Notes: generated from the sequence alone by a model not told the origin. Counted from the first letter of the stretch, positions 12,093-31,085 are shown. The stretch is DNA of 32,000 nt from Microlunatus sp. GCM10028923 (GCF_042666975.1 NZ_JBHTFF010000005.1:1321-33320), one strand, 5' to 3'. Program-made: numbers and translations.

Positions 12093-12144
12093 GGCGAGAA
12101 ACAGGCTATTTCAAGAAACGTCTCACATCAACCTGCTCCTCGAC

Positions 12145-12449: not shown

Positions 12450-14345
12450 GTGTCAGCGGATGACACGGCCACGGCCGGCGGCGAGGTTCGCCGCCGGCTT
12501 GCCGACAGTCCGGTCCGCTATCTCCGGCACGCGCAGGTGCTCTGGCGGGCCTCCCGCGGGTGGACCGCGCTGAGCACGCTGCTGGTCCTGCTCGACGCTG
12601 TCGTCCGGACCCTGTTGATGATCATGATCGGCCGGTTCGCCGGCGCGGTCGCGGCGGCCGTCCGGCCCGGCGCCCCGGCGTCGGAGGTTGATCAGGTCTG
12701 GAGCTCCCTGGTCGCGATCGCCGCCCTGCTGCTGCTCGGCCCGGCGGTGCAGTCGCTGAAGGCGGTGACGGCGGCGCGCTGCTCGGCGGCCTACCTCGCG
12801 TACGTCTTCGATCTCCTGGCCGAGGCCGGCGTCGGGCCGCGCGGGATCGGGCACCTGGACAGCCCGGGTCCCGCGGGCCGGCTCCGCGCCATCGCCGACG
12901 CCACGAAGGACTGGTCGTTCCTGATGGGGATCGACTCGACCTGGTCGGTGCTGACCTCGCGGCTGGCCGCGGTCGGCGCCCTGGTCCTGCTGCTGCCCTG
13001 GCGCTGGTGGGTGCCGCTCCTGGTCGCCGCCACCTTCGTCCTGCTGTCGTACGTGTTCATGGGCTGGATCGGCCTGGCGTTCGACCGGCTGCTGCAGACC
13101 ACGGGTGACCAGCGCCGGCGGGCCGGCTATCTGCGCGGCCTGATGCTCGGAACCGAGGCGGCGAAGGAGATCCGGCTGTTCGGCCTGGCGGACTGGCTCG
13201 GCGAGACGTACCGGTCGACCTGGACCGAGGCCATGACGGGACTGTGGCAGTCCCGGCAGCGCGGCCTCGGGCCGGTGCTGGGCGCCTGCCTGGCCGTGGC
13301 CGCGACGACCGGCGGCGCGTTGATCATGATCGGGGTGGACGTCGTCGCCGGGGCGGTGACGCTGGGCGGCGCGGTGACGCTGGCCCAGGCAGTGCTGCGG
13401 CTGCAGATGTTCGGCCAGCTCGGGAACCCGAGCTCCGCCCTGACCCGGAACACCTCGACGCTGAACGCCCTCGCCGAGCTGCGCCGGGAACTGGGACTGC
13501 CCGCGGTCCGCACGCTTCCCGGTACGGCCCGCCCGGCTGGTCCCGATCGTGGCCCGGCCGCGGTCCGACTGGACGGCGTCAGCTTCGGCTATCCGAGTCG
13601 GAGGACCCTCGCCCTGGACGGGGTCAGCCTGGACGTGCCGGCCGGGCAGTCGATCGCCGTGGTCGGCAGCAACGGCGCCGGCAAGTCGACCATGATCAAA
13701 CTGCTCTGCGGGCTCTACCAGCCGGACCAGGGCACGGTCCGGGTGGACGGCGCCGACCCGGCGGTCGACGAGACCGCCCGGAGCCGGGTGGCGGTGATCT
13801 TCCAGGACTTCGTCCGCTACCACCTGCCCTTGCGGGACAACGTCCGGCTCGACGCCGGCGATCATGATCACGAGGTACTGGAGCGGGCCCTCGCCGATGC
13901 CGGCGGCGCCGGTCTGCTGAACCGTCTCGATCATGGTTGGGACACCGTGCTGTCGGCGGCGTACGACGGCGGCACCGACCTGTCCGGCGGCCAGTGGCAG
14001 CGGGTCGCGCTGGCCCGGGCGCTGGCCGCGGTGGCCGACGGTGCCGGCGTGTTGATCTTGGACGAGCCGACCGCAGCGCTGGACGTGCGGGCCGAGGCGG
14101 AACTGTTCGACCGGTTCCTCGAGGTGACCCGCGGCGTCACCACGATCCTGGTCAGCCACCGGCTGTCCAGCGTCCGGCACGCCGACCGGATCGTCGTGCT
14201 GGCCGACGCCGCGGACGATGATCAGGGAATCGTCGAGGACGGGACGCATCAGGAACTGATGGACCGCGGCGGCCGGTACGCGGCCATGTTCCGGCTGCAG
14301 GCGCGGCGCTTCGCCCGCGACGACTCCGGCGAGGAGGCCCGATGA
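12450..14345 (+). CDS. ABC transporter, fused permease/ATP-binding protein (exporter half-transporter)
   Basis: GTG start, 6 nt after CCAGGAGG. The N-terminal TM domain is followed by Walker A GSNGAGKST, signature LSGGQWQR and Walker B VLILDEPTAALD. The stop overlaps the next start (ATGA at 14342). Confidence 0.9.
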   Translation: MSADDTATAGGEVRRRLADSPVRYLRHAQVLWRASRGWTALSTLLVLLDAVVRTLLMIMIGRFAGAVAAAVRPGAPASEVDQVWSSLVAIAALLLLGPAVQSLKAVTAARCSAAYLAYVFDLLAEAGVGPRGIGHLDSPGPAGRLRAIADATKDWSFLMGIDSTWSVLTSRLAAVGALVLLLPWRWWVPLLVAATFVLLSYVFMGWIGLAFDRLLQTTGDQRRRAGYLRGLMLGTEAAKEIRLFGLADWLGETYRSTWTEAMTGLWQSRQRGLGPVLGACLAVAATTGGALIMIGVDVVAGAVTLGGAVTLAQAVLRLQMFGQLGNPSSALTRNTSTLNALAELRRELGLPAVRTLPGTARPAGPDRGPAAVRLDGVSFGYPSRRTLALDGVSLDVPAGQSIAVVGSNGAGKSTMIKLLCGLYQPDQGTVRVDGADPAVDETARSRVAVIFQDFVRYHLPLRDNVRLDAGDHDHEVLERALADAGGAGLLNRLDHGWDTVLSAAYDGGTDLSGGQWQRVALARALAAVADGAGVLILDEPTAALDVRAEAELFDRFLEVTRGVTTILVSHRLSSVRHADRIVVLADAADDDQGIVEDGTHQELMDRGGRYAAMFRLQARRFARDDSGEEAR

Positions 14346-16123
14346 GCCCGGCCCTGCGCGGGATCGGCATCGTGCTGCGGACGGCGGTCCGGGTCAGCCC
14401 CTGGCAGTCACTGCTGTGCCTGGTCGAGACGGTCGGCAAGGTGCTGGCCGCGCTGGCGCCGCTGTTCATCGGGATCTTCGCCGCCGGGGCCGTCGACCGC
14501 GACCTCGGCCGGATGGCCGGCGCGGCCGCCGCCCTGGTCGGTTCGACCGCCGTCACGAACGCGTTCTCGGCCCTCGGCGTGAACGCGCAGGTGAAGCAGC
14601 ACGAACTCGTCGGGCACACCCTGGACGCCGAGATCGCCCACCGCACCGCGCGGCTGCCGACCCTGGACCACCTGGAGTCCGCCCGCTTCCAAGATCGACT
14701 GCAGCTCCTGAAGGACGGCGAGGGCGTGCTCGGCGGAGCCTTCAGCCTGCTGGTCCACACGATCAACATCCTGGCGTTCTCGGTCGCCGTGCTGATCGTG
14801 GCGGCCACGGCGGACTGGCGGCTGTTGATCTTGATCGCGATCGGCGGGGTCCGGATGCTCAGCGCCCGCTGGACCGTCCGCTGGGAGCGGGACGCCGAAG
14901 AGGCCGGCGCCGCCGCGAGCCGGCTGTCCCGCCATCTGCTCGACCTGACCGGTTCGCCCGCGGCCGGTGCGGAGACCCGGGTCTTCGGCCAGCAGCAGCC
15001 GCTGCGCCGCCGGCTCCGGGCCGCGGTCCTCGGCTGGCGTACCCCACTGGTCCGGGCCGGCGACCGGACCAGTGTGCTGGACGCCGGGCACCTGCTCGTC
15101 TTCTACGCCGTGGCCGCGCTGATTCTGGCCTGGATGACCCGGGATGCCTTGGCCGGAACGGTTTCCGTGCAGGCCCTGGTGGTCGCCGTCGGGGTGCTCG
15201 GCTCCCTGCACGGCGTGAGCTCGTCCTTCGTCGAGGCGATCCGCAACTTCAGCAGGATCGGCCGGAACTGCGCCCGGCTGGTCTGGCTGATCGACTACAC
15301 CGACCGGGTCACGGCGGAGCAGCCGGCCCGGACCGTACCGCCGGCTCGGATCGAGCACGGCCTCCGGATCGAGAACCTGAGCTTCGGCTACGGCGACGCC
15401 GACCGGCCGGTGCTGACCGGCATCGATCTCGACCTGCCGGCCGGAACGGTGATCGCCCTGGTCGGCGAGAACGGCGCCGGCAAGTCCAGCCTGGTGAAGT
15501 TGATCAGCGGGCTGCACCGGCCGACCGGCGGCCGGATCATGATCGACAACCAGGACCTCGCCGACCTCGACCCGGCCTCCTGGCGGACCCGGCTGTCCGG
15601 AGCGTTCCAGGACTACGCCCGGTTCGAGTTCACCGCGCAGCACGCGATCGGCGTCGGCGACCTCCCGGCACTGGACCGGGAGGACCGAGTCCGCCGGGCC
15701 CTGCACGACGCGGCCGCCGAGGACGTCATCGCCGCCCTGCCGCAGGGACTCGGCACCCAGCTCGGCACCACCTGGCCGGCCGGCGTCGACCTCTCCGGTG
15801 GCCAGTGGCAGCGGATCGCCATCGCCCGCGGCATGATCCGCCCGGCCCCGCTGCTGCTGATCCTCGACGAACCGACCGCGGCCCTCGACGCCGCCACCGA
15901 GCACGCCCTGTTCGAGCGCTACGCGGCCGCCGCCCGCACCGCCGCCGGCCACGGCGCGATCACTCTGCTGGTCACCCACCGCTTCTCCACCGTCGCGGCC
16001 GCCGACCTGGTCGTCGTGCTCGACCAGGGCCGGGTCGTCGAGACCGGCACCCACGAGGACCTGATCGCCGCGGGCGGTCGGTACGCGGAGCTGTACGAAC
16101 TCCAAGCCCGCGGCTACCGCTGA
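14342..16123 (+). CDS. ABC transporter, fused permease/ATP-binding protein (partner half-transporter)
   Basis: 593 aa. The TM domain is followed by Walker A GENGAGKSS, signature LSGGQWQR and Walker B LLILDEPTAALD. It is translationally coupled to the upstream paralogue, which suggests a heterodimeric exporter. Confidence 0.9.
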   Translation: MSPALRGIGIVLRTAVRVSPWQSLLCLVETVGKVLAALAPLFIGIFAAGAVDRDLGRMAGAAAALVGSTAVTNAFSALGVNAQVKQHELVGHTLDAEIAHRTARLPTLDHLESARFQDRLQLLKDGEGVLGGAFSLLVHTINILAFSVAVLIVAATADWRLLILIAIGGVRMLSARWTVRWERDAEEAGAAASRLSRHLLDLTGSPAAGAETRVFGQQQPLRRRLRAAVLGWRTPLVRAGDRTSVLDAGHLLVFYAVAALILAWMTRDALAGTVSVQALVVAVGVLGSLHGVSSSFVEAIRNFSRIGRNCARLVWLIDYTDRVTAEQPARTVPPARIEHGLRIENLSFGYGDADRPVLTGIDLDLPAGTVIALVGENGAGKSSLVKLISGLHRPTGGRIMIDNQDLADLDPASWRTRLSGAFQDYARFEFTAQHAIGVGDLPALDREDRVRRALHDAAAEDVIAALPQGLGTQLGTTWPAGVDLSGGQWQRIAIARGMIRPAPLLLILDEPTAALDAATEHALFERYAAAARTAAGHGAITLLVTHRFSTVAAADLVVVLDQGRVVETGTHEDLIAAGGRYAELYELQARGYR

Positions 16124-16244
16124 CCCCTCCTCCCCCAACCCCCGCTGACTGGGCACAAAAGCAGGCGTTTGGACGGCGTGTCGCTGCGGTTGTGCCGAGT
16201 CGACGGAGCCCGGGGTCGTCGGTTCGGAAGGGGAATCGCGACCT

Positions 16245-16264
16245 GCCGGATCACGAGATCCGGC
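16245..16264 (+). terminator. GC-rich hairpin downstream of the ABC operon (possible terminator, no U-tract)
   Basis: GCCGGATC-ACGA-GATCCGGC: a perfect 8-bp stem with a 4-nt loop, about 120 nt after the ABC stop. Confidence 0.3.
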
Positions 16265-16342
16265 CGGCGGTGTCCGATCCGACCGGGCCCGTTCGTGGTG
16301 AGGGCAAGGAGACCCTTTCACCCCGAACGAGGAGATTTGATC

Positions 16343-16792
16343 ATGAAGGAATTCGCCACCAAGCCCGGTACGAAGATCGCGGTGTGGATCGTGTCCGCCC
16401 TGCTCGCGGCGTTCTTCGTGTTCGTCGGCGGCAGCAAGGCCCTGATGGCGTGGGAGGTGCTGGAGGCCGCCTCGATGGGGATCCCGGTGATCCTGCTCAA
16501 GACCGCCGGGTTCGCGGAACTGTTCGGCGCGGCCGGGCTGATCCTGCCCGCGCTGACCCGGATCGCCCCGGTGCTGACCCCGATCGCCGCAGCCGGCCTG
16601 GTGCTGACCATGATCGGCGCGACCGGGGTGGAGATCGCGCTGGGCCATCCGGTCACCGCGGTCCAGGCCGGGGTCGCCGGCCTGCTGTCCGCCTTCGTCG
16701 CCGTCGTCCGGTTCGCCGGGTTGCGGGCGACCACGCCGAGACGAGTTCGGACGATCGGCACCCGTACCGGCGTGTCTGCTGGTGCGGCCTGA
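16343..16792 (+). CDS. DoxX-family membrane protein
   Basis: ATG 16343 is preceded by GGAGA. 149 aa with four hydrophobic helices (IAVWIVSALLAAFFVFVGG.., ..LKTAGFAELFGAAGLILPAL.., etc.). The track ORF upstream of 16343 is Arg-rich and non-coding-like. Confidence 0.75.
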   Translation: MKEFATKPGTKIAVWIVSALLAAFFVFVGGSKALMAWEVLEAASMGIPVILLKTAGFAELFGAAGLILPALTRIAPVLTPIAAAGLVLTMIGATGVEIALGHPVTAVQAGVAGLLSAFVAVVRFAGLRATTPRRVRTIGTRTGVSAGAA

Positions 16793-16816
16793 GACCGTAC
16801 GCGATGATCTTCGGAC

Positions 16817-18199
16817 TCAGGCGGCCTGTTCGCCGCGATCAGCGGTGAGCAGGCCGTCGACGAATCTGGTGGTGTGCCGGGCGGCAGCGAAGTCCGGGTC
16901 GGTGATCAGCCGGCGCAGCAGCGGGATGGTGGTCCGGACCCCGGGACCCTCGACGACATACTCGGCCAGAGCCCGATCGGCGCGGGCAATCGCCTGCTCC
17001 CGGGTCGGCGCCCAGACGATCAGCTTCGCGATCAACGAGTCGTAGTGCGGCGACACCGTGTCGCCCTGGACGAAGCCCGAGTCGATCCGCACCCCCGGTC
17101 CGCCCGGCTGCCGCAGCTCGGTCAGCCGGCCCGGGGTCGGCGCGAAGCCGCGGTCCGGGTCCTCAGCGTTGATCCGGCACTCGATCGCCGCCCCACGCGG
17201 CCGAACGTCGTCCTGCTCGTAGCCCAGCCGTTCGCCGCCGGCGACGCGGAGTTGCTCGGCGATCAGGTCGAGGCCGGTCAGCATCTCGGTGACCGGGTGC
17301 TCGACCTGGATCCGGCCGTTGATCTCCATGAACGTCGCCCGGCCGTCCGGGTCGACCAGGAACTCCATGGTGCCGGCGCCGACGTACCCGATCGCCTTCG
17401 CGCCGGCCACCGCATACCGGCCCAGGTCGGCCCGCAGTTCGTCGGACAGTCCCGGCGACGGGGCCTCCTCGACCAGCTTCTGGTGCCGCCGCTGCAGACT
17501 GCAGTCCCGCTCCCCCAACGACACCGCGGTGCCGTGGCCGTCGGCCAGCAGCTGGACCTCGACGTGCCGGGCGGCGGGCAGGAAGCGTTCCAGGTAGACG
17601 TCGCCGTTGCCGAAGATCTGCCGGGCCAGCGCGACCGTGCGGCGGTACGACTCCGGCAGCTCGGCCGCCGTGTGCACCACCTGGATGCCCCGACCGCCGC
17701 CACCCGCCGCCGCCTTCAGCACCACCGGATAGCCGATCCCGGCGGCGATCGCGACCGCGTCGGCCTGGGTCGGCACGGCCCCGTCGCTGCCCGGCAGCAC
17801 CGGCAGCCCGGCCTCGCGCATCGCGACCCTGGTCCGGGCCTTGTCGCCGAGCTCTTCCATCACCGCGGGCGGCGGGCCGACGAACACGATCCCGTTCTCG
17901 GCGCAGATCCGGGCGAAGTCCGGGTCCTCGGACAGGAAGCCGTAGCCGGGATGGATCGCGTCGACGCCGTGCCGCAGCGCGGTCTCGATCAGGCTCGGCA
18001 GATAGAGGTAGCTGCGCTTCGCCGCGGGCGGCCCGATGTGGGCGGTCTCATCGGCGTAGCGGGCGACAGCGCTGTCCAGATCCGCGCTGGAACAGACGGC
18101 AACTGTACGGATGCCGAGCTCGCGACAGGTCCGGGCGATCCGCAGCGCGATCTCGCCGCGGTTGGCGATAAGCACCGACCGGATCGGCTTGGTGATCAT
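16817..18199 (-). CDS. accC: Acetyl-CoA carboxylase, biotin carboxylase subunit
   Basis: ATG 18199 (MITKPIRSVLIANRGEIALRIARTCRELGI..), 460 aa, with ATP-grasp motifs (..GYPVVLKAAAGGGGRGI.., ..MEFLVD..FMEINGRIQVEHPVTE..). The start overlaps the BCCP stop (ATGA). Confidence 0.92.
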   Translation of the reverse strand: MITKPIRSVLIANRGEIALRIARTCRELGIRTVAVCSSADLDSAVARYADETAHIGPPAAKRSYLYLPSLIETALRHGVDAIHPGYGFLSEDPDFARICAENGIVFVGPPPAVMEELGDKARTRVAMREAGLPVLPGSDGAVPTQADAVAIAAGIGYPVVLKAAAGGGGRGIQVVHTAAELPESYRRTVALARQIFGNGDVYLERFLPAARHVEVQLLADGHGTAVSLGERDCSLQRRHQKLVEEAPSPGLSDELRADLGRYAVAGAKAIGYVGAGTMEFLVDPDGRATFMEINGRIQVEHPVTEMLTGLDLIAEQLRVAGGERLGYEQDDVRPRGAAIECRINAEDPDRGFAPTPGRLTELRQPGGPGVRIDSGFVQGDTVSPHYDSLIAKLIVWAPTREQAIARADRALAEYVVEGPGVRTTIPLLRRLITDPDFAAARHTTRFVDGLLTADRGEQAA

Positions 18200-18675
18200 G
18201 AGACCGCCTCCCGGATCCGGACCAGCGGTTCGCCGAACTCGACCGGCGCGGCGTCGGCGACCAGCACCTCGACCACCTCGCCGGACCGGTCCGCGGCGAC
18301 CGGGTTCATCAGCTTCATCGCCTCGATGATGCCGATCGTCTGCCCGGCCTCGACCCGGTCGCCCGGCCGGACGAACGGGTTCGCGCCCGGCTCCGGAGCC
18401 ACGTAGAAGGTGCCGACCAGCGGCGCCGGGATCACCTCCCCCTCGATCTCGGCGATCTGCTCCGGCTCGGCTGCCGGGCCCTGCGGAACGGCCCGCGGCG
18501 CCGGGGCGGCCGCGCCGTCCGGCAGCACCATCGCCGGCTCGGCCCAGGTCACCTCGAGCGAACACTCGCCGGACCGGACCGAGACCCGCGACACCGGGCC
18601 CGGCACGGTCTTGACCAGGCTGCTCACCTCTTCCCGGAGCAGCCGCAGCGTGCTGTCGTCTGACTCGGCGTTCAT
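18196..18675 (-). CDS. accB: Biotin carboxyl carrier protein (BCCP)
   Basis: ATG 18675, 159 aa. It has an Ala/Pro-rich linker and the biotinyl-lysine motif GIIEAMKLMN. ATGA overlaps occur at both ends. Confidence 0.9.
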   Translation of the reverse strand: MNAESDDSTLRLLREEVSSLVKTVPGPVSRVSVRSGECSLEVTWAEPAMVLPDGAAAPAPRAVPQGPAAEPEQIAEIEGEVIPAPLVGTFYVAPEPGANPFVRPGDRVEAGQTIGIIEAMKLMNPVAADRSGEVVEVLVADAAPVEFGEPLVRIREAVS

Positions 18676-20336
18676 GCGGTCACCCCCAGTGCGCGGAACC
18701 GGTCGAAGCGCTGCTGCCGGCACTTCTCGCCCGACCAGCCGGCCACCGCGTCCAGCTCGGCCATGATCATCGAGCGGACGGTCGCGGTGGTCTCGTCCGG
18801 CGCCGTGTGCGCGCCGCCGTCGGGTTCCGGTACGACCGCGTCGACCACGCCGAGCTTGATCAACTCCGGCGCGGTGATCTTCATCGTCTCGGCCAGCCGG
18901 GCCGCCTCGCCGGCGTGCCCGTACAGGATGGTCGAGCAGCTCTCCGGGCTGATCACCGAGTAGCAGGCGTTCTCCAGCATCAGGACCCGGTTGCCGACGG
19001 CCAGCGCGAGCGCGCCACCGCTGCCGCCCTCGCCGGTGATCACGCTGATCACCGGGACGGTCAGCTCGGCCATCCCGGCGATGCACTCCGCGATCGCCCA
19101 GGCCTGGCCGCGTTCCTCGGCCGCGACGCCGGGGGCGGCGCCCTGGGTGTCGACGAAGGTGATCACCGGTACGTCGAGCCGTTCGGCCAGCCGGAGCAGC
19201 CGGAGCGCCTTGCGATAGCCCTCCGGCTGCGGCATCCCGAAGTTGCGCAGCACCAGGGTCGCCGTGTCGTGGCCCTTCTCGTGGCCGAGCACCATCACGG
19301 TCCGGCCGCCGATCGAGGCCAGCCCGCCGACCACCGCCGGGTCGTCGCCGTGGGTCCGGTCGCCATGCAGCTCGACGAAGTCGTCGCAGATCGCCTCCAG
19401 ATAGTCGGAGGTGACCGGCCGCTGGATCTGCCGGGCCAGCTTGAGCACGTCGGCGGCCGGCCGCTGCCGTACCTCCGCGGTGTCGAGTCGATCATGGAGC
19501 GCGGCGCTCCGGTCGTCCCCCGCGGACCGGCCGGCGTCCAAGATCAACAAGCGGGTCAGCGTCGAGCGCAGGCTCTTCCGCGGCTCCACCCGGTCGATCA
19601 TCCCGGCACCGTGCAGGTATTCGGCGGTCTGGAAGCCCTCCGGCAGCCGTTCCCGGGTGGCGTTCTCGATCACCCGCGGCCCGGCGAAGCCGATCATGGC
19701 GCCCGGTTCGGCGATCAGCACGTCGGCCAGCGTCGCGAACGACGCGGTCACCCCGCCGTAGGTCGGATCGGCCAGCACCCCGATGGTCAGGATGCCGCGC
19801 CGCCGTGCCTCCGCCATCGCCTGCGCCGTCTTCGCCAGCTGCATCAGCGACAAGCACCCCTCCTGCATCCGGGCCCCGCCGGACGAGACCAAGATCAGGT
19901 ACGGCCAGCCGCGGTCCATCGCATCCTCGGCACCGCGGGTGATCACCTCGCCGACCGCCGAGCCCATGCTGCCGCCGAGAAACCCGAAGTCCATCGCGGC
20001 CAGAACCACCGGCCGGCCGCCGATCGTCGCCGTGCCGTGCACCGCCGCCTCGTCCAGCCCGGACCGGCGCCGGGCCCGCTGCACCCGTTCCGGGTACGGC
20101 AGCGTGTCGCTGAACCCGAGCGGATCCGCGCTCCGCGGTTGATCATCGGCCGGCACCCAGGAACCGGGGTCGACCAGCTGGTCGATCCGTTCCCCGGCAC
20201 CGATCCGGTGGTGGTGGCCGCAATCCGGGCAGACCTGCTGGTCCCGGCGCAGCCGCGGCTCGTACAGGGTCACCGAACAGCGCGGGCAGCGCACCCAGGC
20301 GCCGGCCGCGGTGTCCACCGGTGGTGACAGGGTCAT
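18672..20336 (-). CDS. Acetyl-CoA carboxylase carboxyltransferase, fused beta-alpha (AccD-AccA) protein
   Basis: 554 aa. The N-terminal Zn-ribbon CPRCSVTLY..CPDCGHHHR and ..GFLGGSMG.. belong to the AccD half. The AccA-like half follows (..VITFVDTQGAAPG..AEERGQAWAIA..). Confidence 0.9.
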   Translation of the reverse strand: MTLSPPVDTAAGAWVRCPRCSVTLYEPRLRRDQQVCPDCGHHHRIGAGERIDQLVDPGSWVPADDQPRSADPLGFSDTLPYPERVQRARRRSGLDEAAVHGTATIGGRPVVLAAMDFGFLGGSMGSAVGEVITRGAEDAMDRGWPYLILVSSGGARMQEGCLSLMQLAKTAQAMAEARRRGILTIGVLADPTYGGVTASFATLADVLIAEPGAMIGFAGPRVIENATRERLPEGFQTAEYLHGAGMIDRVEPRKSLRSTLTRLLILDAGRSAGDDRSAALHDRLDTAEVRQRPAADVLKLARQIQRPVTSDYLEAICDDFVELHGDRTHGDDPAVVGGLASIGGRTVMVLGHEKGHDTATLVLRNFGMPQPEGYRKALRLLRLAERLDVPVITFVDTQGAAPGVAAEERGQAWAIAECIAGMAELTVPVISVITGEGGSGGALALAVGNRVLMLENACYSVISPESCSTILYGHAGEAARLAETMKITAPELIKLGVVDAVVPEPDGGAHTAPDETTATVRSMIMAELDAVAGWSGEKCRQQRFDRFRALGVTA

Positions 20337-20659: not shown

Positions 20660-20708
20660 CCTTGTCGTCACTGGAATCCCTCTCCCTGTTAGGAATCGCA
20701 CCTCTGAC

Positions 20709-22495: not shown

Positions 22496-22653
22496 TCCGA
22501 CCACACCAGGCGGGTGAGCGCAGAACGATCCCCCGGAATCGGCGCTGGTAGGACTCCACGGTAACCGACGCCGGTGCAGTCGACCCGGGTAAGTTTCTGT
22601 GAGCTTTGTGTGAAGTCACCCGGGAGGTCCGGTGTGCCCTCCGTCACCGTGTC

Positions 22654-23874: not shown

Positions 23875-25142
23875 GCTGCGACCTCCGCCACTCGTGAGAA
23901 CACCATCGCCGACTGGAAGCCGCCGAAGCCGCTGCCGGCGGACAGCGCATGATCAACTCGGACCTCGCGCGCCACCTGCGGCGTGTAGTCGAGGTCGCAC
24001 TCGGGATCCGGCGTCTCCAGGTTCGCCGTCGGCGGCACCACCCCGCGCTGGATCGCCAGCGCACAGGCGGCCATCTCGATCGAGCCGATCGCGCCGAGCG
24101 AGTGCCCGACCACCGACTTGATCGAACTGATCGGCACCCGCCGGGCATGATCACCGAGCGACCGCTTGTAGGCGGCCGTCTCGTGCCGGTCGTTCTGCTT
24201 GGTGCCCGAGCCGTGCGCGCTGATGTACGAGATCTGGTCCGGGTTCAGCCGGGCCTGGCCCAGCGCGTCGACGATCGCGTCGCCGAGTTCGACCCCGTCC
24301 GGGCGCAGCCCGGTCATGTGAAACCCGTTGGCCCGCGCCGCGTAGCCGCCGATCTCGCAGTAGATCTCGGCGCCCCGGGCCAGCGCGTGGCCGAGCTCCT
24401 CGACCACCAGCACGGCCGCGCCCTCGCCGAGCACGAAGCCCTGCCGGTCCGCGTCGAACGGCCGGGAGGCGCGTTCCGGGTCGGCGTTGCGCGGCGTGGT
24501 GGCTCGGATCGCGTCGAAGCAGGCCACCGTGATCGGTGTGATCGGCGCGTCCGCCGCGCCGGCGATCATGACGTCCGCCTCGTCGTCCTGGATCAGCCGC
24601 AGCGCATGGCCGATCGCGTCGATGCCGGAGGTGCAGCCGGTCGACACGACGGTGGCGGCGGCCCGGGCCCCGAACCGGACCGCGAGCTCGGTCGCTGCGC
24701 TGGACGGGACCAGCGACTGGTAGAGGAACGGCATCGCGTGCCGGTGATCGACCAGCCAGTCCCGACCATGATCGCTGGCGACCACGTACTCGTCCTCCAG
24801 GGTGATCGACGAGCCGACCGCCGAGCCGAGCGAGATCCCGCGCCGGTCGCCGTCGTCCTGGTCGGGTTCGACGGCCAGCCCGGAGTCGGCAACCGCCTCG
24901 CCGGCCGCCGCGAGCGCCAGCTGGACGAACCGGTCGGTGCGCCGGCAGATCCGCGGCGTGAGGCCGTACCGGGACGGCTCGAAGTCCACCTCCGCAGCGA
25001 TCTGGGACCGGAACCCGGTCGGGTCGAACGCGGTCACCCGGCGGATCGCCGGCTTCCCGTCGACGATCCGCTGCCAGAAGTCCTCCCGGGTCGGGCCGCC
25101 CGGCGCGACCACGCCGACGCCGGTGACGACGACTCTTCTCAT
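23871..25142 (-). CDS. Type II PKS ketosynthase alpha
   Basis: 423 aa. The active-site Cys is in VVSTGCTSGIDAIGHA and the catalytic His residues in ..ISAHGSGTKQND.. and ..SIKSVVGHSLGAIG... ATGA overlap with the upstream cyclase gene stop. Confidence 0.95.
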   Translation of the reverse strand: MRRVVVTGVGVVAPGGPTREDFWQRIVDGKPAIRRVTAFDPTGFRSQIAAEVDFEPSRYGLTPRICRRTDRFVQLALAAAGEAVADSGLAVEPDQDDGDRRGISLGSAVGSSITLEDEYVVASDHGRDWLVDHRHAMPFLYQSLVPSSAATELAVRFGARAAATVVSTGCTSGIDAIGHALRLIQDDEADVMIAGAADAPITPITVACFDAIRATTPRNADPERASRPFDADRQGFVLGEGAAVLVVEELGHALARGAEIYCEIGGYAARANGFHMTGLRPDGVELGDAIVDALGQARLNPDQISYISAHGSGTKQNDRHETAAYKRSLGDHARRVPISSIKSVVGHSLGAIGSIEMAACALAIQRGVVPPTANLETPDPECDLDYTPQVAREVRVDHALSAGSGFGGFQSAMVFSRVAEVAA

Positions 25143-26017
25143 CGCCCGACACCTGATCGGCTCGCCGCGCCGTCGCCGACCAGGACGGCCCGCTCCTCCG
25201 GGCCCGGCTCGGTGTCGACGTGGCCGAGCTGCGGTGCCGGTGCGAGCGGGCTGAGCTGGAACACCGCCAGCGCCTCGTCGTCGCCGATGTTGATCAAGCG
25301 ATGCCGTACGTTGCGCGGCACCAGCAGCGCGTGCTCGCCCGGCACCGTGACCGCCTCGCCGTCCAGGTCCACCTGCAGCGTCCCGGACGCGACGAACAGG
25401 AACTCCTCCGAGTACGGGTGGTAGTGCTCCGAGACCCGTTCGCCCGGGGCCAGCCGGACCGCGCCGCAGAAGCCGGACGAGGACCCGACGTTCGGCGGAG
25501 CGATCATGGTCCGCAGGTCGCCGCCGCGCCGCCGGTTGGCCGGCACGTCGCCGAACCCGACCACCAGCCGGCGCCGCTGCTCCACCCGGTCCTTGATCAA
25601 CTTCAGCTGGACCGCGCTGTTGCGGTTGATGTTGTCGGTCATCCAGGCGGTGTCCACCGGCGCGTCCGGCCGCATCTCGAAGTCCTGCACCCAGCGCAAT
25701 TCGGTCCGGTCCGGACCCAGCTCCCGGTAGGTCCAGGTCAGGTTCATGAACTCGAACGGGCCCTTCTCGATCCGGCGGGCCCGGACTACGCCCTGCTCGG
25801 TGTCCCAGCGCCGCTCCGAGACCCAGGACCAGACCCGACCTTGATCATCGGGATGCATGGTCAGCCGGAACGTCGCGGAGTTCTCGGTCTCCTCGAGGAT
25901 CTCGATCTCCGCGTACTCGGAGAACAGGTTGGGCCAGTCGCTCAGGTTGTTCGTCTGGGTCCAGACGAAGGAGCTCGGGGCGTCGATCTCGATGGCGTTG
26001 TCGGTGTGTCCGATCAT
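25139..26017 (-). CDS. Fusion protein: SRPBCC (TcmN/WhiE-ORFVI-like) aromatase/cyclase domain + cupin (TcmJ/WhiE-ORFII-like) domain
   Basis: 292 aa. Residues ~1-150 (IEIDAPSSFVWTQTNNLSDWPNLFSEY..FMNLTWTY..) look like a polyketide cyclase/dehydrase. Residues ~165-270 carry both cupin motifs (GERVSEHYHPYSEEFLFVASG and GEAVTVPGEHALLVPRNVRHRLIN). Confidence 0.85.
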   Translation of the reverse strand: MIGHTDNAIEIDAPSSFVWTQTNNLSDWPNLFSEYAEIEILEETENSATFRLTMHPDDQGRVWSWVSERRWDTEQGVVRARRIEKGPFEFMNLTWTYRELGPDRTELRWVQDFEMRPDAPVDTAWMTDNINRNSAVQLKLIKDRVEQRRRLVVGFGDVPANRRRGGDLRTMIAPPNVGSSSGFCGAVRLAPGERVSEHYHPYSEEFLFVASGTLQVDLDGEAVTVPGEHALLVPRNVRHRLINIGDDEALAVFQLSPLAPAPQLGHVDTEPGPEERAVLVGDGAASRSGVGR

Positions 26018-26029
26018 GATGCGCTCCTC

Positions 26030-26302
26030 TCAGGCCTGGCCGGACAACCGGGCGTTGACCAGGTCGCGGATCCCGGCCGGCGTGGCCTCCGCGGTCAGGT
26101 CCGGCTCGATCTCGACCCCGAACTGATCTTGGATCCGGCCGGCGATCTCGACCCGGGCCAGCGAGTCGAGGTCGAGCTCGGTGAAGGTCGACTGGTAGGA
26201 CTCGGGCACCGCGGCCGCGGTGTCCAGTCCGACCGCCAGCAGCAGCTGGCGAAGATCATCGTCGGTCAGGCCGGCGGTGGTCACTACGGTCTCGTTGGTC
26301 AT
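26030..26302 (-). CDS. Type II PKS acyl carrier protein
   Basis: ATG 26302 after GAAGGGA, 90 aa. The phosphopantetheine attachment motif is ELDLDSLARVEI. Confidence 0.9.
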   Translation of the reverse strand: MTNETVVTTAGLTDDDLRQLLLAVGLDTAAAVPESYQSTFTELDLDSLARVEIAGRIQDQFGVEIEPDLTAEATPAGIRDLVNARLSGQA

Positions 26303-26315
26303 GATCAAGTTCCCT

Positions 26316-26657
26316 TCAGGAGGAGGTCGTGGTCGGTTGGGCCGAGGTCTCGGCACAGATCTCGAAGCGGAGCGAGCGCGCCTCGGTGAAGCACTTCCGC
26401 AGCGGTGCGGCCAGTTCCCGGTGCTCCTCGGTGGCCTCCCAGGCCACGAAGGAGTCCAGGTCCCGCCATTCGCTGGTGATCATCCACTGCTCGGGATCGG
26501 TGGCCGACCGGCAGACCTGATCACGCAGGTGTCCGGGTACGCCGCGGGCCACCTCGTAGCGGATCTGTTCGTAGGCGTCCAGGAAGTCGTACTCGTACTC
26601 GAGCGGAACCTTGAGCAGGAAGACGATCCGGGCCCGGAAGCCCTCGGTGCCCGTCAT
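26316..26657 (-). CDS. Antibiotic biosynthesis monooxygenase (ABM; TcmH/ActVA-Orf6-like)
   Basis: 113 aa with a ferredoxin-like ABM pattern (ARIVFLLKVP..FLDAYEQIRYEV..PGHL..TSEWRDLDSFVAWEATEEHRE). ATGA overlap with the SDR stop. Confidence 0.8.
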   Translation of the reverse strand: MTGTEGFRARIVFLLKVPLEYEYDFLDAYEQIRYEVARGVPGHLRDQVCRSATDPEQWMITSEWRDLDSFVAWEATEEHRELAAPLRKCFTEARSLRFEICAETSAQPTTTSS

Positions 26658-27532
26658 CGCGCACCTGCCTGGGCCGGCGCGCCGGTGGCGGGTGCCGCGG
26701 AGGTACGGGCTCCCGGCGGCGGGCCACCCACCCCGGGCGGCGGCCCGCCGGCCAGCGCCGAGCTGTAGGAGAACTTGCCGAGCACCGGGACGACGCTGCC
26801 GTACAGGCCGTCCGACTCCGGACTGGTCAGGAAGCCGACCGCCCGGGCCACCAGGGCCGGGTCCACCGTGTGATCAAGATCAAGACCGGGCCGCTCGGCC
26901 CGCATCTTCGGCGTGTCCGCGATCGTCATCGACACCACGTTGGCGTGGATGCCGCGCCGCTTCACCTCGTGCGCCATGGACCGGACCCAGGTGGTCAGCG
27001 CCGCCTTCGCGGCCGAGTAGGCCGACAGCGCGGCCAGCGGCTCGACCGCCAGCGGGGTGCTGAAGTAGACCAGCCGGCCGCCCTCGGTCAGGTGCGGCAG
27101 CACCGCCTGGGTGGCCACCACCGCGGAGCGGAAGTTCGACATGATCAACTCGTCGTAGACCGCGACGTCGGTGAGCATCACCGGGCCGAAGCCGAACCGG
27201 CCGATCAGGTGGACCAGACCGCCGAGCCCGTCGAATCGTTCCGCGGCCCGGGCGGCCGCCTGCTGGGCGCCGTCCGGCTGGGCGGCGTCGGCCTGGAAGG
27301 TCTCGATCACGCCCGGCGCACCGTACCGGCGGTCCAGGTCGGCCAGCCGCTCGGCGTTGCGGCCGGTCAGCAGCAGCCGGTGGCCGCGGTCGGCGAGCAC
27401 CCGGACGATCGGCTCGGCCAGCGGGCCGGTGGCGCCGGTGATCAACAGGGCCGGGGCCGTCTTTTCGGGGTCCCCGCGGCCCGGTTCGGGGGAGCGAAGC
27501 GGAGGAGAATCGGGTCGTGGGGTGTTTCTCAT
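26654..27532 (-). CDS. SDR-family oxidoreductase (putative polyketide ketoreductase)
   Basis: ATG 27532 gives 292 aa. Motifs: LLITGATGPLAEPIV (NAD(P)-binding Gly motif) and catalytic YSAAKAAL. The N-terminus is disordered and the tail is Pro/Gly-rich (GGPPPGVGGPPPG). ATGA overlap with the upstream gene. Confidence 0.85.
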   Translation of the reverse strand: MRNTPRPDSPPLRSPEPGRGDPEKTAPALLITGATGPLAEPIVRVLADRGHRLLLTGRNAERLADLDRRYGAPGVIETFQADAAQPDGAQQAAARAAERFDGLGGLVHLIGRFGFGPVMLTDVAVYDELIMSNFRSAVVATQAVLPHLTEGGRLVYFSTPLAVEPLAALSAYSAAKAALTTWVRSMAHEVKRRGIHANVVSMTIADTPKMRAERPGLDLDHTVDPALVARAVGFLTSPESDGLYGSVVPVLGKFSYSSALAGGPPPGVGGPPPGARTSAAPATGAPAQAGAR

Positions 27533-27888
27533 GTGGACGCCTCGAGGGTGGCGACCCGGGTGGTGACGTGCTCCATCATCGCCCGGCCGAAGAACGCCCG
27601 GGCACCCTCCGGTGTGCTGAGGTCCCGCGGCTCGGCCAGGAAGGGATCGAGGTCCCGCTCCAGCTGCTGGATGCTCGGCTGCCGGGCCAGGTGGGCCATG
27701 ATGCTCGGCAGTGGCCCGTCCACCTCCATCATCCGGACCACCAGCCCGTCCTTGATGAAGATCGAGGTGCCGAGCAGGCGAGCCCCGTCCGGGGTCACCC
27801 ACTCCGGCGGTTCGTAGCCGGCCAGGAGTTCCTTGACCTGGTCCTCGGTTCCGGGCCTGACCCGGAACATGATCGCGTATCGCTGCAT
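27529..27888 (-). CDS. SchA/CurD-like (TcmI-fold, spore-pigment-cluster type) small protein
   Basis: ATG 27888 lies 5 nt after GGGAGGA, giving 119 aa. MQRYAIMFRVRPGTEDQVKELL..SIFIKDGLVVRMMEVDG..DPFLAEPRDL.. is collinear in pattern with TcmI-type alpha+beta barrel proteins, and its position as first gene of the PKS operon fits. The family assignment is from memory, not a search. Confidence 0.6.
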   Translation of the reverse strand: MQRYAIMFRVRPGTEDQVKELLAGYEPPEWVTPDGARLLGTSIFIKDGLVVRMMEVDGPLPSIMAHLARQPSIQQLERDLDPFLAEPRDLSTPEGARAFFGRAMMEHVTTRVATLEAST

Positions 27889-28071
27889 CGTTCCTCCCGC
27901 GTCGTCGTCTGCTTCCAGCCTGGACATCAGCGCGGTCGCTGTCTTCCACCCGGTGGAGGAGATCCGGGCTCCCCTGCCTGGTGGACCGGGAGTTCATTCC
28001 GCCGACGGAAGACGATCATGGTCCGACCTGCGTACCGTCGTGATCATGATCTTGGAACCTCGGAACGTACG
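27889..28071. promoter_or_regulatory. Divergent promoter region between the minimal-PKS operon and the monooxygenase/methyltransferase operon
   Basis: A 183-bp gap separates divergent starts 27888 (-) and 28072 (+). It contains the palindrome TCCACCCGGTGGA (27945-27957) and GATCATGATC (28042-28051), the latter 20 nt before the monooxygenase ATG. Confidence 0.5.
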
Positions 28072-29277
28072 ATGAGCCCGCCGGCCACCGCCGTGATCAT
28101 CGGCGGCGGGATCGGCGGTCTCGCGACCGCCCGGGCGCTGCACCGGCAGGGCATCGCCACCACCGTGTACGAGCGCCGGGCCGAATCGACCGACGCCGGC
28201 GCCGGGAACGGCCTGGTGGTCTGGCACAACGCGACCATCGCGCTGCGCGGCCTGGGCCTGGAGCGCGAGCTGGCCGGCGCCGGGATTCCCTTGCAGCGTT
28301 ACCTTTTCCGGTCCGCCACCGATCATGACCTGGCCACCTGGTCGCTGGCCGACGGCGCCCGGCGGACCGGCGCGGCCGCGTACACGGTGGCTCGTCCGGA
28401 GCTGCACCGGCTGCTCGCCGAGGCGGCACCCGGCCCGATCGAGTACGGTGCGCACTGCGTCGGCTTCGCGGAGGATGCCGACGGCGTTCTGGTCCGGTTC
28501 GCCGACGGCCGGGAGGTGCGGACGGACCTGCTGGTCGGCGCCGACGGGATCCGCTCGGTGGTCCGGCGGCAGCTGATCCCGGCCGAGCCGCCGCCCCGGC
28601 ACGCCGGTGTCCGGGCCTGGCAGGGCGTGGTCGCCGACCCCGGCGGGCTGCCGGACGGCGCGTTCGTGAACACGTTCGGTCGCGGGCTGTGGTTCGTCTG
28701 CTACCGGCTGGCCGGGGGCCTCGTCTACTGGGACGGGGTGGTCAGCGACGAGGTCGCGCGCGATGATCACCGGCTGCGGGACGGGCAGCTCGGTGAGCAG
28801 GGCAAGGCGTTCCTGACCCGGCTGTTCGGCGACTGGCCCGGCCCGATCCCGGAGCTGATCGCGGCGACGCCGGCGAACGCCCTGCAGCCGGTCGACATCG
28901 CCGACCGCGACCCGGTGCCGCGCTGGAGCACCGACCGGGTCACCCTGGTCGGCGACGCCGCGCACCCGATGACGTTCAACCTCGGCCAGGGCGCCAACCA
29001 GGCGATCGAGGGCGCGACCGTGCTGGCGGGTTCGCTGGCGGCCGGTCCGGACCTGACGACCGCGCTGCGCCGTTATGACGCCGCGCGCACCGACCGGACC
29101 GCCCGGCTGGTCCGGCAGTCCCGGGCCAACGGCGTGTTCAGCCGCTGGCGGCATCCGGTGGTCTGCGCGGCCCGGGACGCATTCATGCGGATCGCGTTCC
29201 CGCGCCTGGTCTACCGCAAGACGTACCAACTGACGATGGATCTGAATCCGCTCACCACCACCGAAGGACGGCCATGA
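28072..29277 (+). CDS. FAD-dependent aromatic-ring monooxygenase (WhiE-ORFVIII/TcmG class)
   Basis: ATG 28072 places the GxGxxG fingerprint (VIIGGGIGGLATA) at the N-terminus. Other motifs: DLLVGADGIRS and GDAAHPMTFNLGQGANQAIE. Codons 28018-28071 are A/T-ending, so the longer start is unlikely. Confidence 0.9.
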   Translation: MSPPATAVIIGGGIGGLATARALHRQGIATTVYERRAESTDAGAGNGLVVWHNATIALRGLGLERELAGAGIPLQRYLFRSATDHDLATWSLADGARRTGAAAYTVARPELHRLLAEAAPGPIEYGAHCVGFAEDADGVLVRFADGREVRTDLLVGADGIRSVVRRQLIPAEPPPRHAGVRAWQGVVADPGGLPDGAFVNTFGRGLWFVCYRLAGGLVYWDGVVSDEVARDDHRLRDGQLGEQGKAFLTRLFGDWPGPIPELIAATPANALQPVDIADRDPVPRWSTDRVTLVGDAAHPMTFNLGQGANQAIEGATVLAGSLAAGPDLTTALRRYDAARTDRTARLVRQSRANGVFSRWRHPVVCAARDAFMRIAFPRLVYRKTYQLTMDLNPLTTTEGRP

Positions 29278-30116
29278 CGACCCTGCAGCAGCCCACCACC
29301 GGCGTCAGCCGGACCGCCGTGATCATCGCCCAGGCCCGCGCCGAGGAGCACCGCCGGCCGGACCGGTTGTTCGACGACCCGCTGGCCCAGCACTTCGTCG
29401 ACACGATCGGCTGGATCCAGGTCGCCCAGGCCGGCCGGCTGAACCAGGAGCACTTCGTCCTCCGGACCCGCTTCTTCGACGACTACCTGCGCTCGACGAC
29501 CGCGGCCGGCCGGCGGCAGGTGGTGCTGGTCGCCGCCGGGCTGGACACCCGCGCCTACCGGCTGGACTGGCCGGACGGGACCCAGCTGTTCGAGATCGAC
29601 CTGCCGGGCCTGGTCGCGTTCAAGCAGGCGGTGCTCGGCGTGCACCGGGCCGAGCCGCGCTGCCGGCGCACGGTGGTCCGGGCCGATCTGCGGGACGACT
29701 GGCCGGCCGACCTGATCGCCGCCGGCTTCGACCCGACGCGACCGACCGCCTGGCTGATCGAAGGTCTGCTGATGTACCTCGAGCGGGCCGACAACGACTC
29801 GCTGCTGGAACGGATCGGCGGCCTCTCCGCGCCCGGCAGCGCGATCGCACTGGAGCACATCAACCAGGCCTACGTCGACCTGCCGGAGATGCGGGCCGTG
29901 CACGAGCGGCTGAAGAACGTCGGCGCGTCCTGGCACTCGACGGTCGAGGACCCGGTGGCCTGGCTGGCCGGGCACGGCTGGACCGCGTCGGTGACACCGC
30001 AGACCGCGCTGGCCCAGCGGCACCGCCGGCCGGTCCCGCGGCTGACCGACCCGGCGATCGTCGACGACGCCCGGATGTGGCTGGTCAGCGGCGAACGCCA
30101 CGCCTCAGCCCTTTGA
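29274..30116 (+). CDS. Class I SAM-dependent methyltransferase (LCMT/TIGR00027-like O-methyltransferase family)
   Basis: 280 aa. GVSRTAVIIAQARAEEHRRPDRLFDDPLAQHFV.., VLVAAGLDTRAYRL and WLIEGLLMYL are typical of this family. ATGA overlap with the monooxygenase stop, and GAAGGA lies upstream. Confidence 0.85.
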   Translation: MTTLQQPTTGVSRTAVIIAQARAEEHRRPDRLFDDPLAQHFVDTIGWIQVAQAGRLNQEHFVLRTRFFDDYLRSTTAAGRRQVVLVAAGLDTRAYRLDWPDGTQLFEIDLPGLVAFKQAVLGVHRAEPRCRRTVVRADLRDDWPADLIAAGFDPTRPTAWLIEGLLMYLERADNDSLLERIGGLSAPGSAIALEHINQAYVDLPEMRAVHERLKNVGASWHSTVEDPVAWLAGHGWTASVTPQTALAQRHRRPVPRLTDPAIVDDARMWLVSGERHASAL

Positions 30117-30117
30117 G

Positions 30118-30232: not shown

Positions 30233-30248
30233 TCCGTTGGAGGCCTGT

Positions 30249-31085
30249 ATGACCGGCGTCGCCCCGCTCATCCAACTGCGCAACGGCGCGAAGCTGCCCG
30301 CCCTCGGCCTCGGCACGTACGGACTGACCGGTGACGCCGGCGTCGCTTCCGTACGGACCGCGCTGCAGGCCGGCTACCGGCTGCTCGACACCGCCGAGAA
30401 CTACCGCAACGAGGAGACCGTCGGGGCCGGCGTCGCCGCGTCCGGCGTGCCCCGGTCCGAGGTGTTCGTCACCAGCAAGTTCAACCGCGAATGGCACAGC
30501 GTCGACGGTGCGCGGAAGGCGTTCCAGGCCAGCATCGAACGGCTCGGCCTCGACTACCTGGACCTGCTGCTGATCCACTGGCCGAACCCGGACCAAGATC
30601 AGTACGTGGACGCGGTGCGCGGTCTGCAGGCGCTGCTGGAGGACGGCCTGGTCCGGGCGATCGGCACCTCGAACTTCAAGCCGGCCCACCTGCGCCGGGT
30701 GATCGACGAGACCGGGATCGTGCCGGACGTCAACCAGATCCAGCTCAGCCCGTTCCACCCGCGGGAGGAGGACCGGGCCTTCGCCGCGGAGCAGGGCATC
30801 GTGATCGAGTCCTGGACGCCGATCGGCGGCTCCGGCGACGGGCTGCGGAGCGACCCGGTGATCACCGAGATCGCCCGGGCCCACGACAAGACGGCGGCCC
30901 AGGTGATCTTGCGCTGGCACCACCAGCTGGGCCTGGTGGCGATCCCGAAGTCCGGCGATCCGCAGCGGCAGGCGGAGAACCTGGCGATCTTCGACTTCGA
31001 GCTCACCGACGACGAGCTGGCCGCGATCTCGGGTCTCGATCGACGCGGCGAGGGACTGGCCGATTCCGACCGCCAGGGCCACTGA
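30249..31085 (+). CDS. Aldo/keto reductase (2,5-diketo-D-gluconate reductase-like)
   Basis: ATG 30249 lies 5 nt after GGAGG. Motifs: LRNGAKLPALGLGTYGL, LDTAENYRNEE, DLLLIHWPNP and IPKSGDPQRQAENL, the AKR signature blocks. Confidence 0.9.
   Translation: MTGVAPLIQLRNGAKLPALGLGTYGLTGDAGVASVRTALQAGYRLLDTAENYRNEETVGAGVAASGVPRSEVFVTSKFNREWHSVDGARKAFQASIERLGLDYLDLLLIHWPNPDQDQYVDAVRGLQALLEDGLVRAIGTSNFKPAHLRRVIDETGIVPDVNQIQLSPFHPREEDRAFAAEQGIVIESWTPIGGSGDGLRSDPVITEIARAHDKTAAQVILRWHHQLGLVAIPKSGDPQRQAENLAIFDFELTDDELAAISGLDRRGEGLADSDRQGH

Follow-up and report, generated by a model that had tools for sequence, protein, structure and literature searches.

The DNA analysed is a 32,000-nucleotide stretch from Microlunatus sp. 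GCM10028923 (GCF_042666975.1 NZ_JBHTFF010000005.1:1321-33320), hereafter the window, which has a G+C content of approximately 71% and carries a polyketide synthase (PKS) gene cluster of type II that probably belongs to a widespread orphan family related to the frankiamicin and whiE clusters. Genes were chosen by third-position GC content together with Pfam scans, and by these measures all of the genes listed in a preliminary description of positions 12450-31085 are present at full length, with none broken, at the coordinates it had given (Table 1). That description had classed the locus as a tcm/whiE-like type II PKS cluster, an assignment supported here, and the motifs it had quoted for the two ketosynthase (KS) subunits (VSTGCTSG and ASSGQISI) and for the acyl carrier protein (ACP; DSL) were recovered in the translations, in which the EAMKLM motif was also read. 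The gene junctions are likewise exactly as it had reported. ATGA overlaps of 4 nt link SchA with the short-chain dehydrogenase/reductase (SDR), SDR with the antibiotic biosynthesis monooxygenase (ABM) gene, cyclase with KS-alpha, KS-alpha with KS-beta, TcmI with the carboxyltransferase (CT), CT with the biotin carboxyl carrier protein (BCCP) and BCCP with biotin carboxylase (BC), while gaps of 13, 12 and 49 nt separate ABM from ACP, ACP from cyclase and the response regulator from TcmI, respectively; the histidine kinase and response regulator genes overlap by 22 nt. The proposal of two long minus-strand operons is plausible from this apparent translational coupling. Seventeen cluster genes could be compared with orthologs in Microlunatus parietis, at a dS of approximately 0.2, giving dN/dS values of 0.02-0.3 for the enzymes and 0.54 for BCCP, which has a low-complexity linker; no stops were present in the M. 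parietis orthologs and the alignments contained few gaps. All 17 genes are under purifying selection and the cluster is alive at the sequence level.

The best PDB match of both KS-alpha and KS-beta (the chain length factor, CLF) was the Act KS/CLF 1TQY. The two genes are adjacent, KS-alpha retains the active-site Cys and two His residues, the CLF carries the replacing Gln and the ACP is discrete, as in an iterative, dissociated aromatic PKS of type II. The CLF was aligned to the act CLF (1TQY_B), with act numbering anchored on the F109, T112, F116 triad, and its pocket residues were read as N109, G112, I116, I133, A139, S140, Y194 and A195. Among the 120 closest CLFs listed, N109, G112, A139 and Y194 do not vary, while I133 occurs in 119/120 and A195 in 118/120, and the window CLF has all six of these family residues. 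I/V133, A139 and S/T140 are the KS-beta residues of all training-set producers of chains of at least 24 carbons (Ogasawara et al., PMC4383371), a signature with which I133, A139 and S140 of the window CLF agree, and at its gate act's F, T and F are replaced by the smaller residues N109, G112 and I116. A length of at least 24 carbons is supported by the fit of the CLF residues to this published signature, and a lack of reduction at C-9 by the generic character of the SDR described below, in line with the long unreduced chain that had been proposed. N109 and A195 are among six KS-beta residues reported as unique to a Frankia clade; the clade sits within a large diverged group of uncharacterised clusters, of which frankiamicin A, a pentangular C24 compound, was the first product to be characterised (PMC4383371). 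A corresponding KS-alpha signature, 'A110/S204', was dropped, as act itself has A110 in PDB numbering and the mapping was unreliable. KS-alpha, CLF and ACP, all with their catalytic residues present, would extend an acetate starter to at least 24 carbons, with no reduction at C-9.

Between the ACP and KS-alpha genes lies a gene for a fusion protein in which a WhiE-ORFVI-like first/second-ring aromatase/cyclase occupies residues 1-150 and a cupin residues ~165-260. The cyclase domain matched 3TL1/3TVR (E 1e-57) and TcmN (E 1e-43) in the PDB, being 59% identical to WhiE ORFVI (residues 1-148) and 49% identical to TcmN, and an AlphaFold (AF2) model of the fusion is confident in both domains (pLDDT 93.5, pTM 0.83). 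The cyclase pocket residues and the His/Glu ligands of the cupin are invariant across 36 homologs. The WhiE-ORFVI-like domain would close and aromatise the first two rings, and the attached cupin domain together with the TcmI-type cyclase would close later ones. The ABM protein had been likened to TcmH, but is better described as resembling the N-terminal domain of WhiE ORFI (PDB 9LMN), a recently solved structure of 397 aa, the central part of which is matched by the SchA/CurD-domain protein; AbxO (9LTX) is a weaker relative of the latter (E 7e-10). The single PF03992 (ABM) gene of the window is flanked by the ACP and SDR genes, and the ABM and SchA/CurD genes together represent a split WhiE ORFI with the SDR gene inserted between the two parts. 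Both proteins may help cyclisation or quinone formation. No paper on the WhiE ORFI or AbxO structures was found in the literature searched, which was covered in part, and NCBIfam gave no names beyond Pfam's specificity for the PKS, cyclase, ABM and SchA proteins.

The top PDB matches of the SDR are generic SDRs, with HedKR matched at E 4e-10 and no actinorhodin or landomycin ketoreductase named among its 60 best PDB matches, and its similarity to solved polyketide ketoreductases is no greater than that to generic FabG. Since this similarity is only generic, the SDR, which is kept in the family at 59-65% identity, is read as a probable tailoring reductase and not as a C-9 ketoreductase. The class A FAD monooxygenase is closest to HpxO, PhzS, NicC and salicylate hydroxylases. 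The methyltransferase encoded beside it scored 253 bits against TIGR00027 (cut-off 94), with ML2640 and Rv0731c as PDB matches; TcmP is a member of the same PF04072/TIGR00027 family. This monooxygenase-methyltransferase pair keeps its divergent placement in Streptomyces, Actinoplanes and Cryptosporangium. The SDR, the flavin monooxygenase and the TcmP-type methyltransferase would respectively reduce, hydroxylate and methylate the product, possibly at a terminal carboxyl in the last case.

Malonyl-CoA would be supplied by a dedicated heteromeric (E. coli-type) acetyl-CoA carboxylase, for which BC, a BCCP with the biotinyl-lysine motif and both AccD and AccA halves are encoded; the carboxyltransferase scored above the cut-off of the accA model and just below that of accD (316.1 vs 317.45 bits), each model matching a different half of the protein. 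The TcmI-CT-BCCP-BC module is also found in Cryptosporangium, Actinomadura, Amycolatopsis and Microbispora. The three carboxylase genes and the CurD-like gene had been counted as unusual additions, but they are standard in the pentangular xan and ltm clusters (PMC9127795).

Table 1. Features of the window discussed in the text, with positions counted from its first nucleotide and the matches or motifs on which each assignment is based.
Feature	Position	Strand	Basis
KS-beta/CLF	22654-23874	minus	Pfam; ASSGQISI (Gln replaces active-site Cys)
KS-alpha	23871-25142	minus	Pfam; VSTGCTSG (active-site Cys)
ACP	26030-26302	minus	PF00550; LDSL motif, DSL serine
SRPBCC aromatase/cyclase and metal-binding cupin fusion	25139-26017	minus	Pfam PF03364/PF10604 and PF07883
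TcmI-type (ferredoxin-fold) late-ring cyclase	20333-20659	minus	PF04673 E 1e-38; PDB TcmI 1TUW E 6e-15
ABM-fold protein	26316-26657	minus	PF03992; PDB 9LMN residues 41-142, E 3.7e-24
SchA/CurD-domain protein	27529-27888	minus	PF04486 E 1e-39; PDB 9LMN residues 162-267, E 2e-29
SDR reductase	26654-27532	minus	Pfam; YxxxK present
Class A FAD monooxygenase	28072-29277	plus	Pfam
LCM/TcmP-type S-adenosylmethionine methyltransferase	29274-30116	plus	PF04072 E 1e-54
BC	16817-18199	minus	Pfam
BCCP	18196-18675	minus	Pfam; EAMKLM biotinylation motif
Fused AccD-AccA carboxyltransferase, 554 aa	18672-20336	minus	Pfam, NCBIfam
NarL-type response regulator	20709-21464	minus	Pfam; NCBIfam NarL-like matches
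HisKA_3 kinase, short soluble, 263 aa	21443-22234	minus	Pfam
HAMP/HisKA sensor kinase HK2, membrane-bound	5604-7088	minus	Pfam; two transmembrane-like segments
OmpR-type response regulator RR2	7090-7815	minus	Pfam
MMPL/RND-type transporter	7926-10145	plus	Pfam MMPL; 14 transmembrane-like segments
Intergenic region, 419 nt, 55% GC	22235-22653		between the two minus-strand operons (KS-beta stop / kinase start)
Divergent promoter region	27889-28071		between SchA operon and FAD-monooxygenase operon
Two overlapping genes (weak NTP_transf_8-like; helix-turn-helix protein)	10174-12092	minus	interrupt conserved cluster
ABC half-transporters (fused transmembrane and nucleotide-binding domain exporters)	12450-14345, 14342-16123	plus	Pfam ABC_tran
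DoxX_2 membrane protein	16343-16792	plus	Pfam
Aldo-keto reductase (DkgA-like)	30249-31085	plus	Pfam, NCBIfam

The hallmark of the family is a cassette of ACP, fused WhiE-ORFVI-like cyclase-cupin, KS-alpha and KS-beta, which was read directly in related loci L013-L018 and by tblastn in loci L001-L011. The window CLF shares 96% identity with that of M. parietis DSM 22083, falling to 64-68% for the next relatives; the 120 closest CLFs listed span 56-96% identity and belong to Streptomyces (filamentosus, ipomoeae, coeruleorubidus, bicolor and others), Streptosporangium, Nonomuraea, Actinomadura, Actinoplanes, Cryptosporangium, Amycolatopsis, Thermomonospora and many soil metagenomes. None of these 120 CLFs carries a product name, and only generic names are attached to the 120 closest cyclase-cupin proteins listed. 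The cassette is usually accompanied by SchA, SDR and ABM genes upstream and by the divergent FAD monooxygenase and LCM methyltransferase genes, as well as by a HisKA_3 kinase, a NarL-type regulator and TcmI, often by CT-BCCP-BC, and by MMPL, OmpR-type regulator and HAMP kinase genes. In Cryptosporangium minutisporangium 18 genes are shared with the window in identical order, and near-identical gene sets occur in Actinoplanes campanulatus, Streptomyces filamentosus and Streptosporangium. The cyclase-cupin fusion, given in the preliminary description as a departure from the classical layout, and the embedded two-component pair that it had listed are family traits, with all of the 120 cyclase-cupin homologs listed being fused (253-350 aa, at least 92% query coverage) and the pair being present in most related loci. 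Its claim of novelty stands in part: no characterised counterpart was found in the literature searched, but the cluster is not a one-off, being one member of a large orphan family. In literature of partial coverage, no description of this cluster type was found in work on Microlunatus, MMPL proteins or the cryptic type II PKS of S. roseosporus, nor any publication linking the cassette to a compound.

A tblastn search of a plasmid collection with the CLF returned one family member, from Nonomuraea gerenzanensis (65%), the other hits being approximately 50% identical CLFs of other clusters with unnamed products. Three variants were observed around the core cassette: APS (adenosine phosphosulfate) kinase, CysD/CysN-like genes, a sulfotransferase and two MMPL genes in Amycolatopsis thailandensis (L017); a glycosyltransferase, PIG-L, a flavin reductase and a major facilitator superfamily (MFS) gene in Streptomyces coelicoflavus (L014); and an anthrone oxygenase and amidohydrolase in Actinomadura graeca (L015). 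The S. coelicoflavus CLF (60% identical) was considered as a possible whiE protein and rejected, its context being that of another variant of the orphan family. In public sequencing runs, a 2.9 kb Logan contig (P0121) encodes a fused cyclase 99% identical to that of the window, and a CLF 81% identical to the window's (P0002) was present in a second run; close relatives of the window's organism therefore occur in unassembled public data. An exact-match look-up with the KS-alpha protein of the window itself gave no record.

The borders set by the preliminary description, 12450-31085, omit a segment (5604-10145) encoding an MMPL transporter, RR2 and HK2. MMPL orthologs are 58-68% identical and co-travel with the PKS genes despite rearrangements, RR2 orthologs 68-73% identical are located beside PKS genes in 10 related loci (with a 54% homolog in L011), and HK2 orthologs with 53-62% identity adjoin PKS genes in Streptosporangium, Streptomyces and Actinoplanes; in Cryptosporangium a HAMP/HisKA kinase gene lies at the position of HK2, cut by the locus end. 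The identities of these three proteins span the same range as those of the PKS proteins. Their genes stand beside PKS genes in three arrangements in five genera, neighbouring KS-beta in Streptosporangium and Actinoplanes and BC in Cryptosporangium, and in Streptomyces lying between KS-beta and TcmI, and this persistence together through rearrangement argues for a functional linkage with the PKS genes. The MMPL gene and OmpR-type pair belong to the cluster. Matches of the MMPL protein to the ActII-type MMPL and MmpL3 models of NCBIfam fell under the cut-off; the protein likely exports the product.

The ABC pair, DoxX and the aldo-keto reductase, which had been included as cluster parts, have no close counterpart in related loci outside Microlunatus. 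The ABC proteins gave MsbA/CydCD-like NCBIfam matches under the cut-off and, outside Microlunatus, approximately 30% partial matches to unrelated ABC genes only; the pair is apparently Microlunatus-specific and may provide extra export or resistance. Among the related loci DoxX_2 (88%) and the aldo-keto reductase were each found in M. parietis only, and the latter is Microlunatus-specific, with uncertain membership of the pathway. The two overlapping genes at 10174-12092 have lowered GC3 values of 0.72-0.79 and a dS of 0.44 (vs approximately 0.2 for cluster genes), lie on the opposite side of the ABC genes in M. parietis and are absent from other genera; neither matched a PADLOC defence system or an NCBIfam family. 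This suggests a mobile or rearranged pair that is probably outside the pathway. The block 10174-16792 as a whole, comprising the NTP_transf_8-like, helix-turn-helix, two ABC and DoxX genes, has no close counterpart in other genera and its order differs even in M. parietis. The conserved cluster would then extend over approximately 5604-30116, interrupted by this lineage-specific Microlunatus block. On the left (1-5578) a GFO/IDH fragment and HhH-GPD glycosylase, MFS_3, GNAT and GH43 genes were observed, and on the right (31092-32000) an EamA transporter gene, the open reading frame of which starts at the window's very edge; both flanks look like unrelated housekeeping or accessory genes.

No SARP regulator is present within 12450-31085, as had been noted earlier. 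The kinase/NarL-type regulator pair adjoins the TcmI cyclase gene across the family, and its HisKA_3 kinase has neither a transmembrane segment nor a sensor domain. Expression would be controlled by this embedded NarL-type regulator and soluble kinase together with the membrane-bound OmpR-type pair beside MMPL. The intergenic region at 22235-22653 has long blocks identical to M. parietis and holds three copies of the motif AGAATTCG(W)A(Y), found there only (vs 0.22 expected), including the palindrome AGAATTCGAATTCT, and is a candidate promoter/operator region. The divergent region between the SchA and FAD-monooxygenase operons is 88% identical to M. parietis, above expectation from the dS of approximately 0.2 at synonymous sites, and contains at 28014-28051 two 10-nt palindromes, GATCATGGTC and GATCATGATC, 28 nt apart. 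A scan of 20200-28300 for sigma-70 promoters and terminators gave nothing exceeding chance, an Rfam scan of the whole window gave no match and a tRNA scan of the window found none.

The nearest characterised clusters appear to be frankiamicin and whiE, because the CLF pocket residues fit the signature for at least 24 carbons and include two residues of the Frankia clade. In the fkm cluster of Frankia sp. EAN1pec the fkmR1 histidine kinase and fkmR5 LuxR-family regulator genes lie upstream, with three conservon-type genes between, and are followed by TcmI-type cyclase, ACP, TcmN-type cyclase, cupin, KS-alpha and KS-beta genes (PMC4383371). The order in the Actinoplanes relative, kinase, regulator, TcmI, ACP, cyclase, cupin, KS-alpha and KS-beta, is parallel to this, and the ACP-first order which the preliminary description had treated as a departure from known layouts is that of fkm, where genes for a histidine kinase and a LuxR-family regulator also occupy this end of the cluster (PMC4383371). 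The window and fkm further share N109 and A195, the I/V133, A139, S/T140 signature and the lack of a SARP regulator, whereas the window arranges its acetyl-CoA carboxylase genes and PKS operon differently round the fkm-like core. Cyclase and cupin are separate genes in fkm and fused in the window, and downstream of KS-beta fkm has a PdmG/BenL-type ketoreductase gene and two adjacent ABM genes, in place of which the window has, upstream, the gene of an apparently unrelated SDR together with a single ABM gene and a SchA/CurD gene. Acetyl-CoA carboxylase, FAD monooxygenase, TcmP-type methyltransferase, MMPL and OmpR-type pair, all encoded in the window, are missing from fkm, and no Frankia CLF was among the 120 closest CLFs listed. 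The xan, ltm and arx clusters resemble the window in their three-gene acetyl-CoA carboxylase (a fused carboxyltransferase of approximately 560-570 aa, BCCP and BC), CurD-like protein, TcmI, cupin and TcmN-type trio, ABM proteins and FAD monooxygenases, but differ in gene order (cyclase, cyclase, KS-alpha, KS-beta, ACP, cyclase), C26 chains, the presence of C17/C19 ketoreductases, of ABM genes in pairs and of SARP regulators, and a much larger tailoring complement that includes an amidotransferase, P450s and a glycosyltransferase (PMC9127795).

These likenesses raise the question of whether the window holds a canonical pentangular polyphenol cluster like those for frankiamicin, pradimicin or benastatin, making a five-ring C24 product by the established route, which is considered rather unlikely. 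The fkm-like order of cyclase, ACP and KS genes, the TcmN/TcmJ (cupin)/TcmI cyclase trio, KS-beta residues I133, A139 and S140 with N109 and A195 as in the Frankia clade (PMC4383371), the xan- and ltm-like carboxylase and CurD-like genes and a ketoreductase-ABM-ABM module in an Amycolatopsis relative are all consistent with it. Pentangular clusters, however, always have an adjacent PdmH/PdmI-like ABM pair and a PdmG/BenL/LanV-type ketoreductase (PMC4383371), and two such adjacent co-directional ABM genes are not present in the window, where the single ABM is most like the N-terminal domain of WhiE ORFI and is split from SchA by the SDR gene. Nor was a PdmG/BenL/LanV-type ketoreductase seen when the SDR was judged by HedKR and the landomycin ketoreductase as PDB proxies, its similarity being generic. 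An improbable alternative is that the cluster is a whiE ortholog making the same structurally unsolved spore pigment. The two systems have in common an ORFVI-type cyclase with the high identity given above, ABM and SchA/CurD domains jointly matching ORFI, a cupin, a TcmI-type cyclase, a divergent FAD hydroxylase and a presumed product class of long unreduced aromatic polyketides, and many carriers of the family are sporulating actinomycetes. The whiE cluster of Streptomyces coelicolor has the order ORFI, II, III, IV, V, VI, VII with ORFVIII divergent, and the position of the FAD monooxygenase, divergent from SchA as ORFVIII is from ORFI, is the only agreement with this layout. The order in the window is instead SchA, SDR, ABM, ACP, cyclase-cupin, KS-alpha, KS-beta, with TcmI in the second operon, so that the ACP comes first, cyclase and cupin are fused and ORFI, one protein with ABM and SchA/CurD domains in whiE, is represented by two genes with the SDR between. 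The window and its family also add a methyltransferase, SDR, acetyl-CoA carboxylase, MMPL and two two-component systems, no model whiE strain contributes to the list of the 120 closest CLFs, and the CLF of S. coelicoflavus, a relative of S. coelicolor, is located in a different, glycosyltransferase-containing variant of the family. Microlunatus, moreover, is a coccus that is not known to sporulate.

Production of a C20 tetracenomycin-like decaketide from the tcm-style tailoring set is quite improbable, even though TcmI-, TcmN- and TcmJ (cupin)-type cyclases and a methyltransferase of the TcmP family (PF04072/TIGR00027) are all present. The cyclase is nearer to WhiE ORFVI, which acts in a C24 system, than to TcmN, and the CLF gate is smaller than that of act. 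In tcm, TcmN is fused to an O-methyltransferase, whereas the window cyclase is fused to a cupin, and an acetyl-CoA carboxylase, an MMPL transporter and a two-component system are all lacking from tcm. Its chain is C20, whereas I133, A139 and S140 of the window CLF are those of producers of at least 24 carbons (PMC4383371). Decay or permanent silence, leaving the cluster without current function, appears very improbable; the family kinase lacks its G1 box and a rearranged five-gene block breaks the conserved cluster, but the genes are full length with catalytic residues kept, enzyme dN/dS values against M. parietis are low with no stops and few gaps, and the G1-box loss is a trait of the whole family and not a local lesion.

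The reading preferred here, membership of the orphan family related to frankiamicin and whiE, places the cluster between the spore-pigment and pentangular/Frankia classes as what appears to be an architecturally distinct, uncharacterised variant, because the pentangular ABM pair, the whiE gene order and a single-polypeptide ORFI are all missing. Several points weigh against it. The window has just two of the six KS-beta residues specific to the Frankia clade, E110 and S192 being conservative changes and A118 and A129 differing, and the predicted chain length is taken from a published residue signature. Family and position are the only grounds for the roles given to the SDR, monooxygenase, methyltransferase, ABM and SchA proteins, and those of MMPL in export and of both two-component systems in regulation are suggested by co-occurrence alone. 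The HisKA_3 kinase lacks the G1 (DxGxG) ATP-binding motif in all family members aligned, with the H-box, N-box and G2 box retained, and could be inactive as a kinase, of an atypical kinase type or a phosphatase.

All of the enzyme families are known and this is not a new kind of system. The architecture of the family is its own, however, combining a fused cyclase-cupin, a split WhiE ORFI and an MMPL transporter with two two-component systems, and judged from its gene content the family appears to be chemically diversified. Solving one member would give a product class for more than 100 clusters that are now only generically annotated and could inform the unsolved structure of whiE-type pigments. 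Compact versions in Cryptosporangium or Actinoplanes, and that of S. filamentosus, which is amenable to genetics, offer a better start than the Microlunatus copy. It can be suggested tentatively, as a doubtful extension, that the family encodes a conserved envelope-directed aromatic polyketide with a new ring system, MMPL-exported and membrane-sensor-controlled, with a physiological role as protective pigment, redox agent or signal and not as an antibiotic. Were this true, the aromatase-cupin fusion would form the skeleton together with the split WhiE-ORFI proteins, the retention of the cluster from mycelial sporulating genera to the non-mycelial Microlunatus would be explained, and the family would offer a tractable route to whiE-type pigment chemistry.

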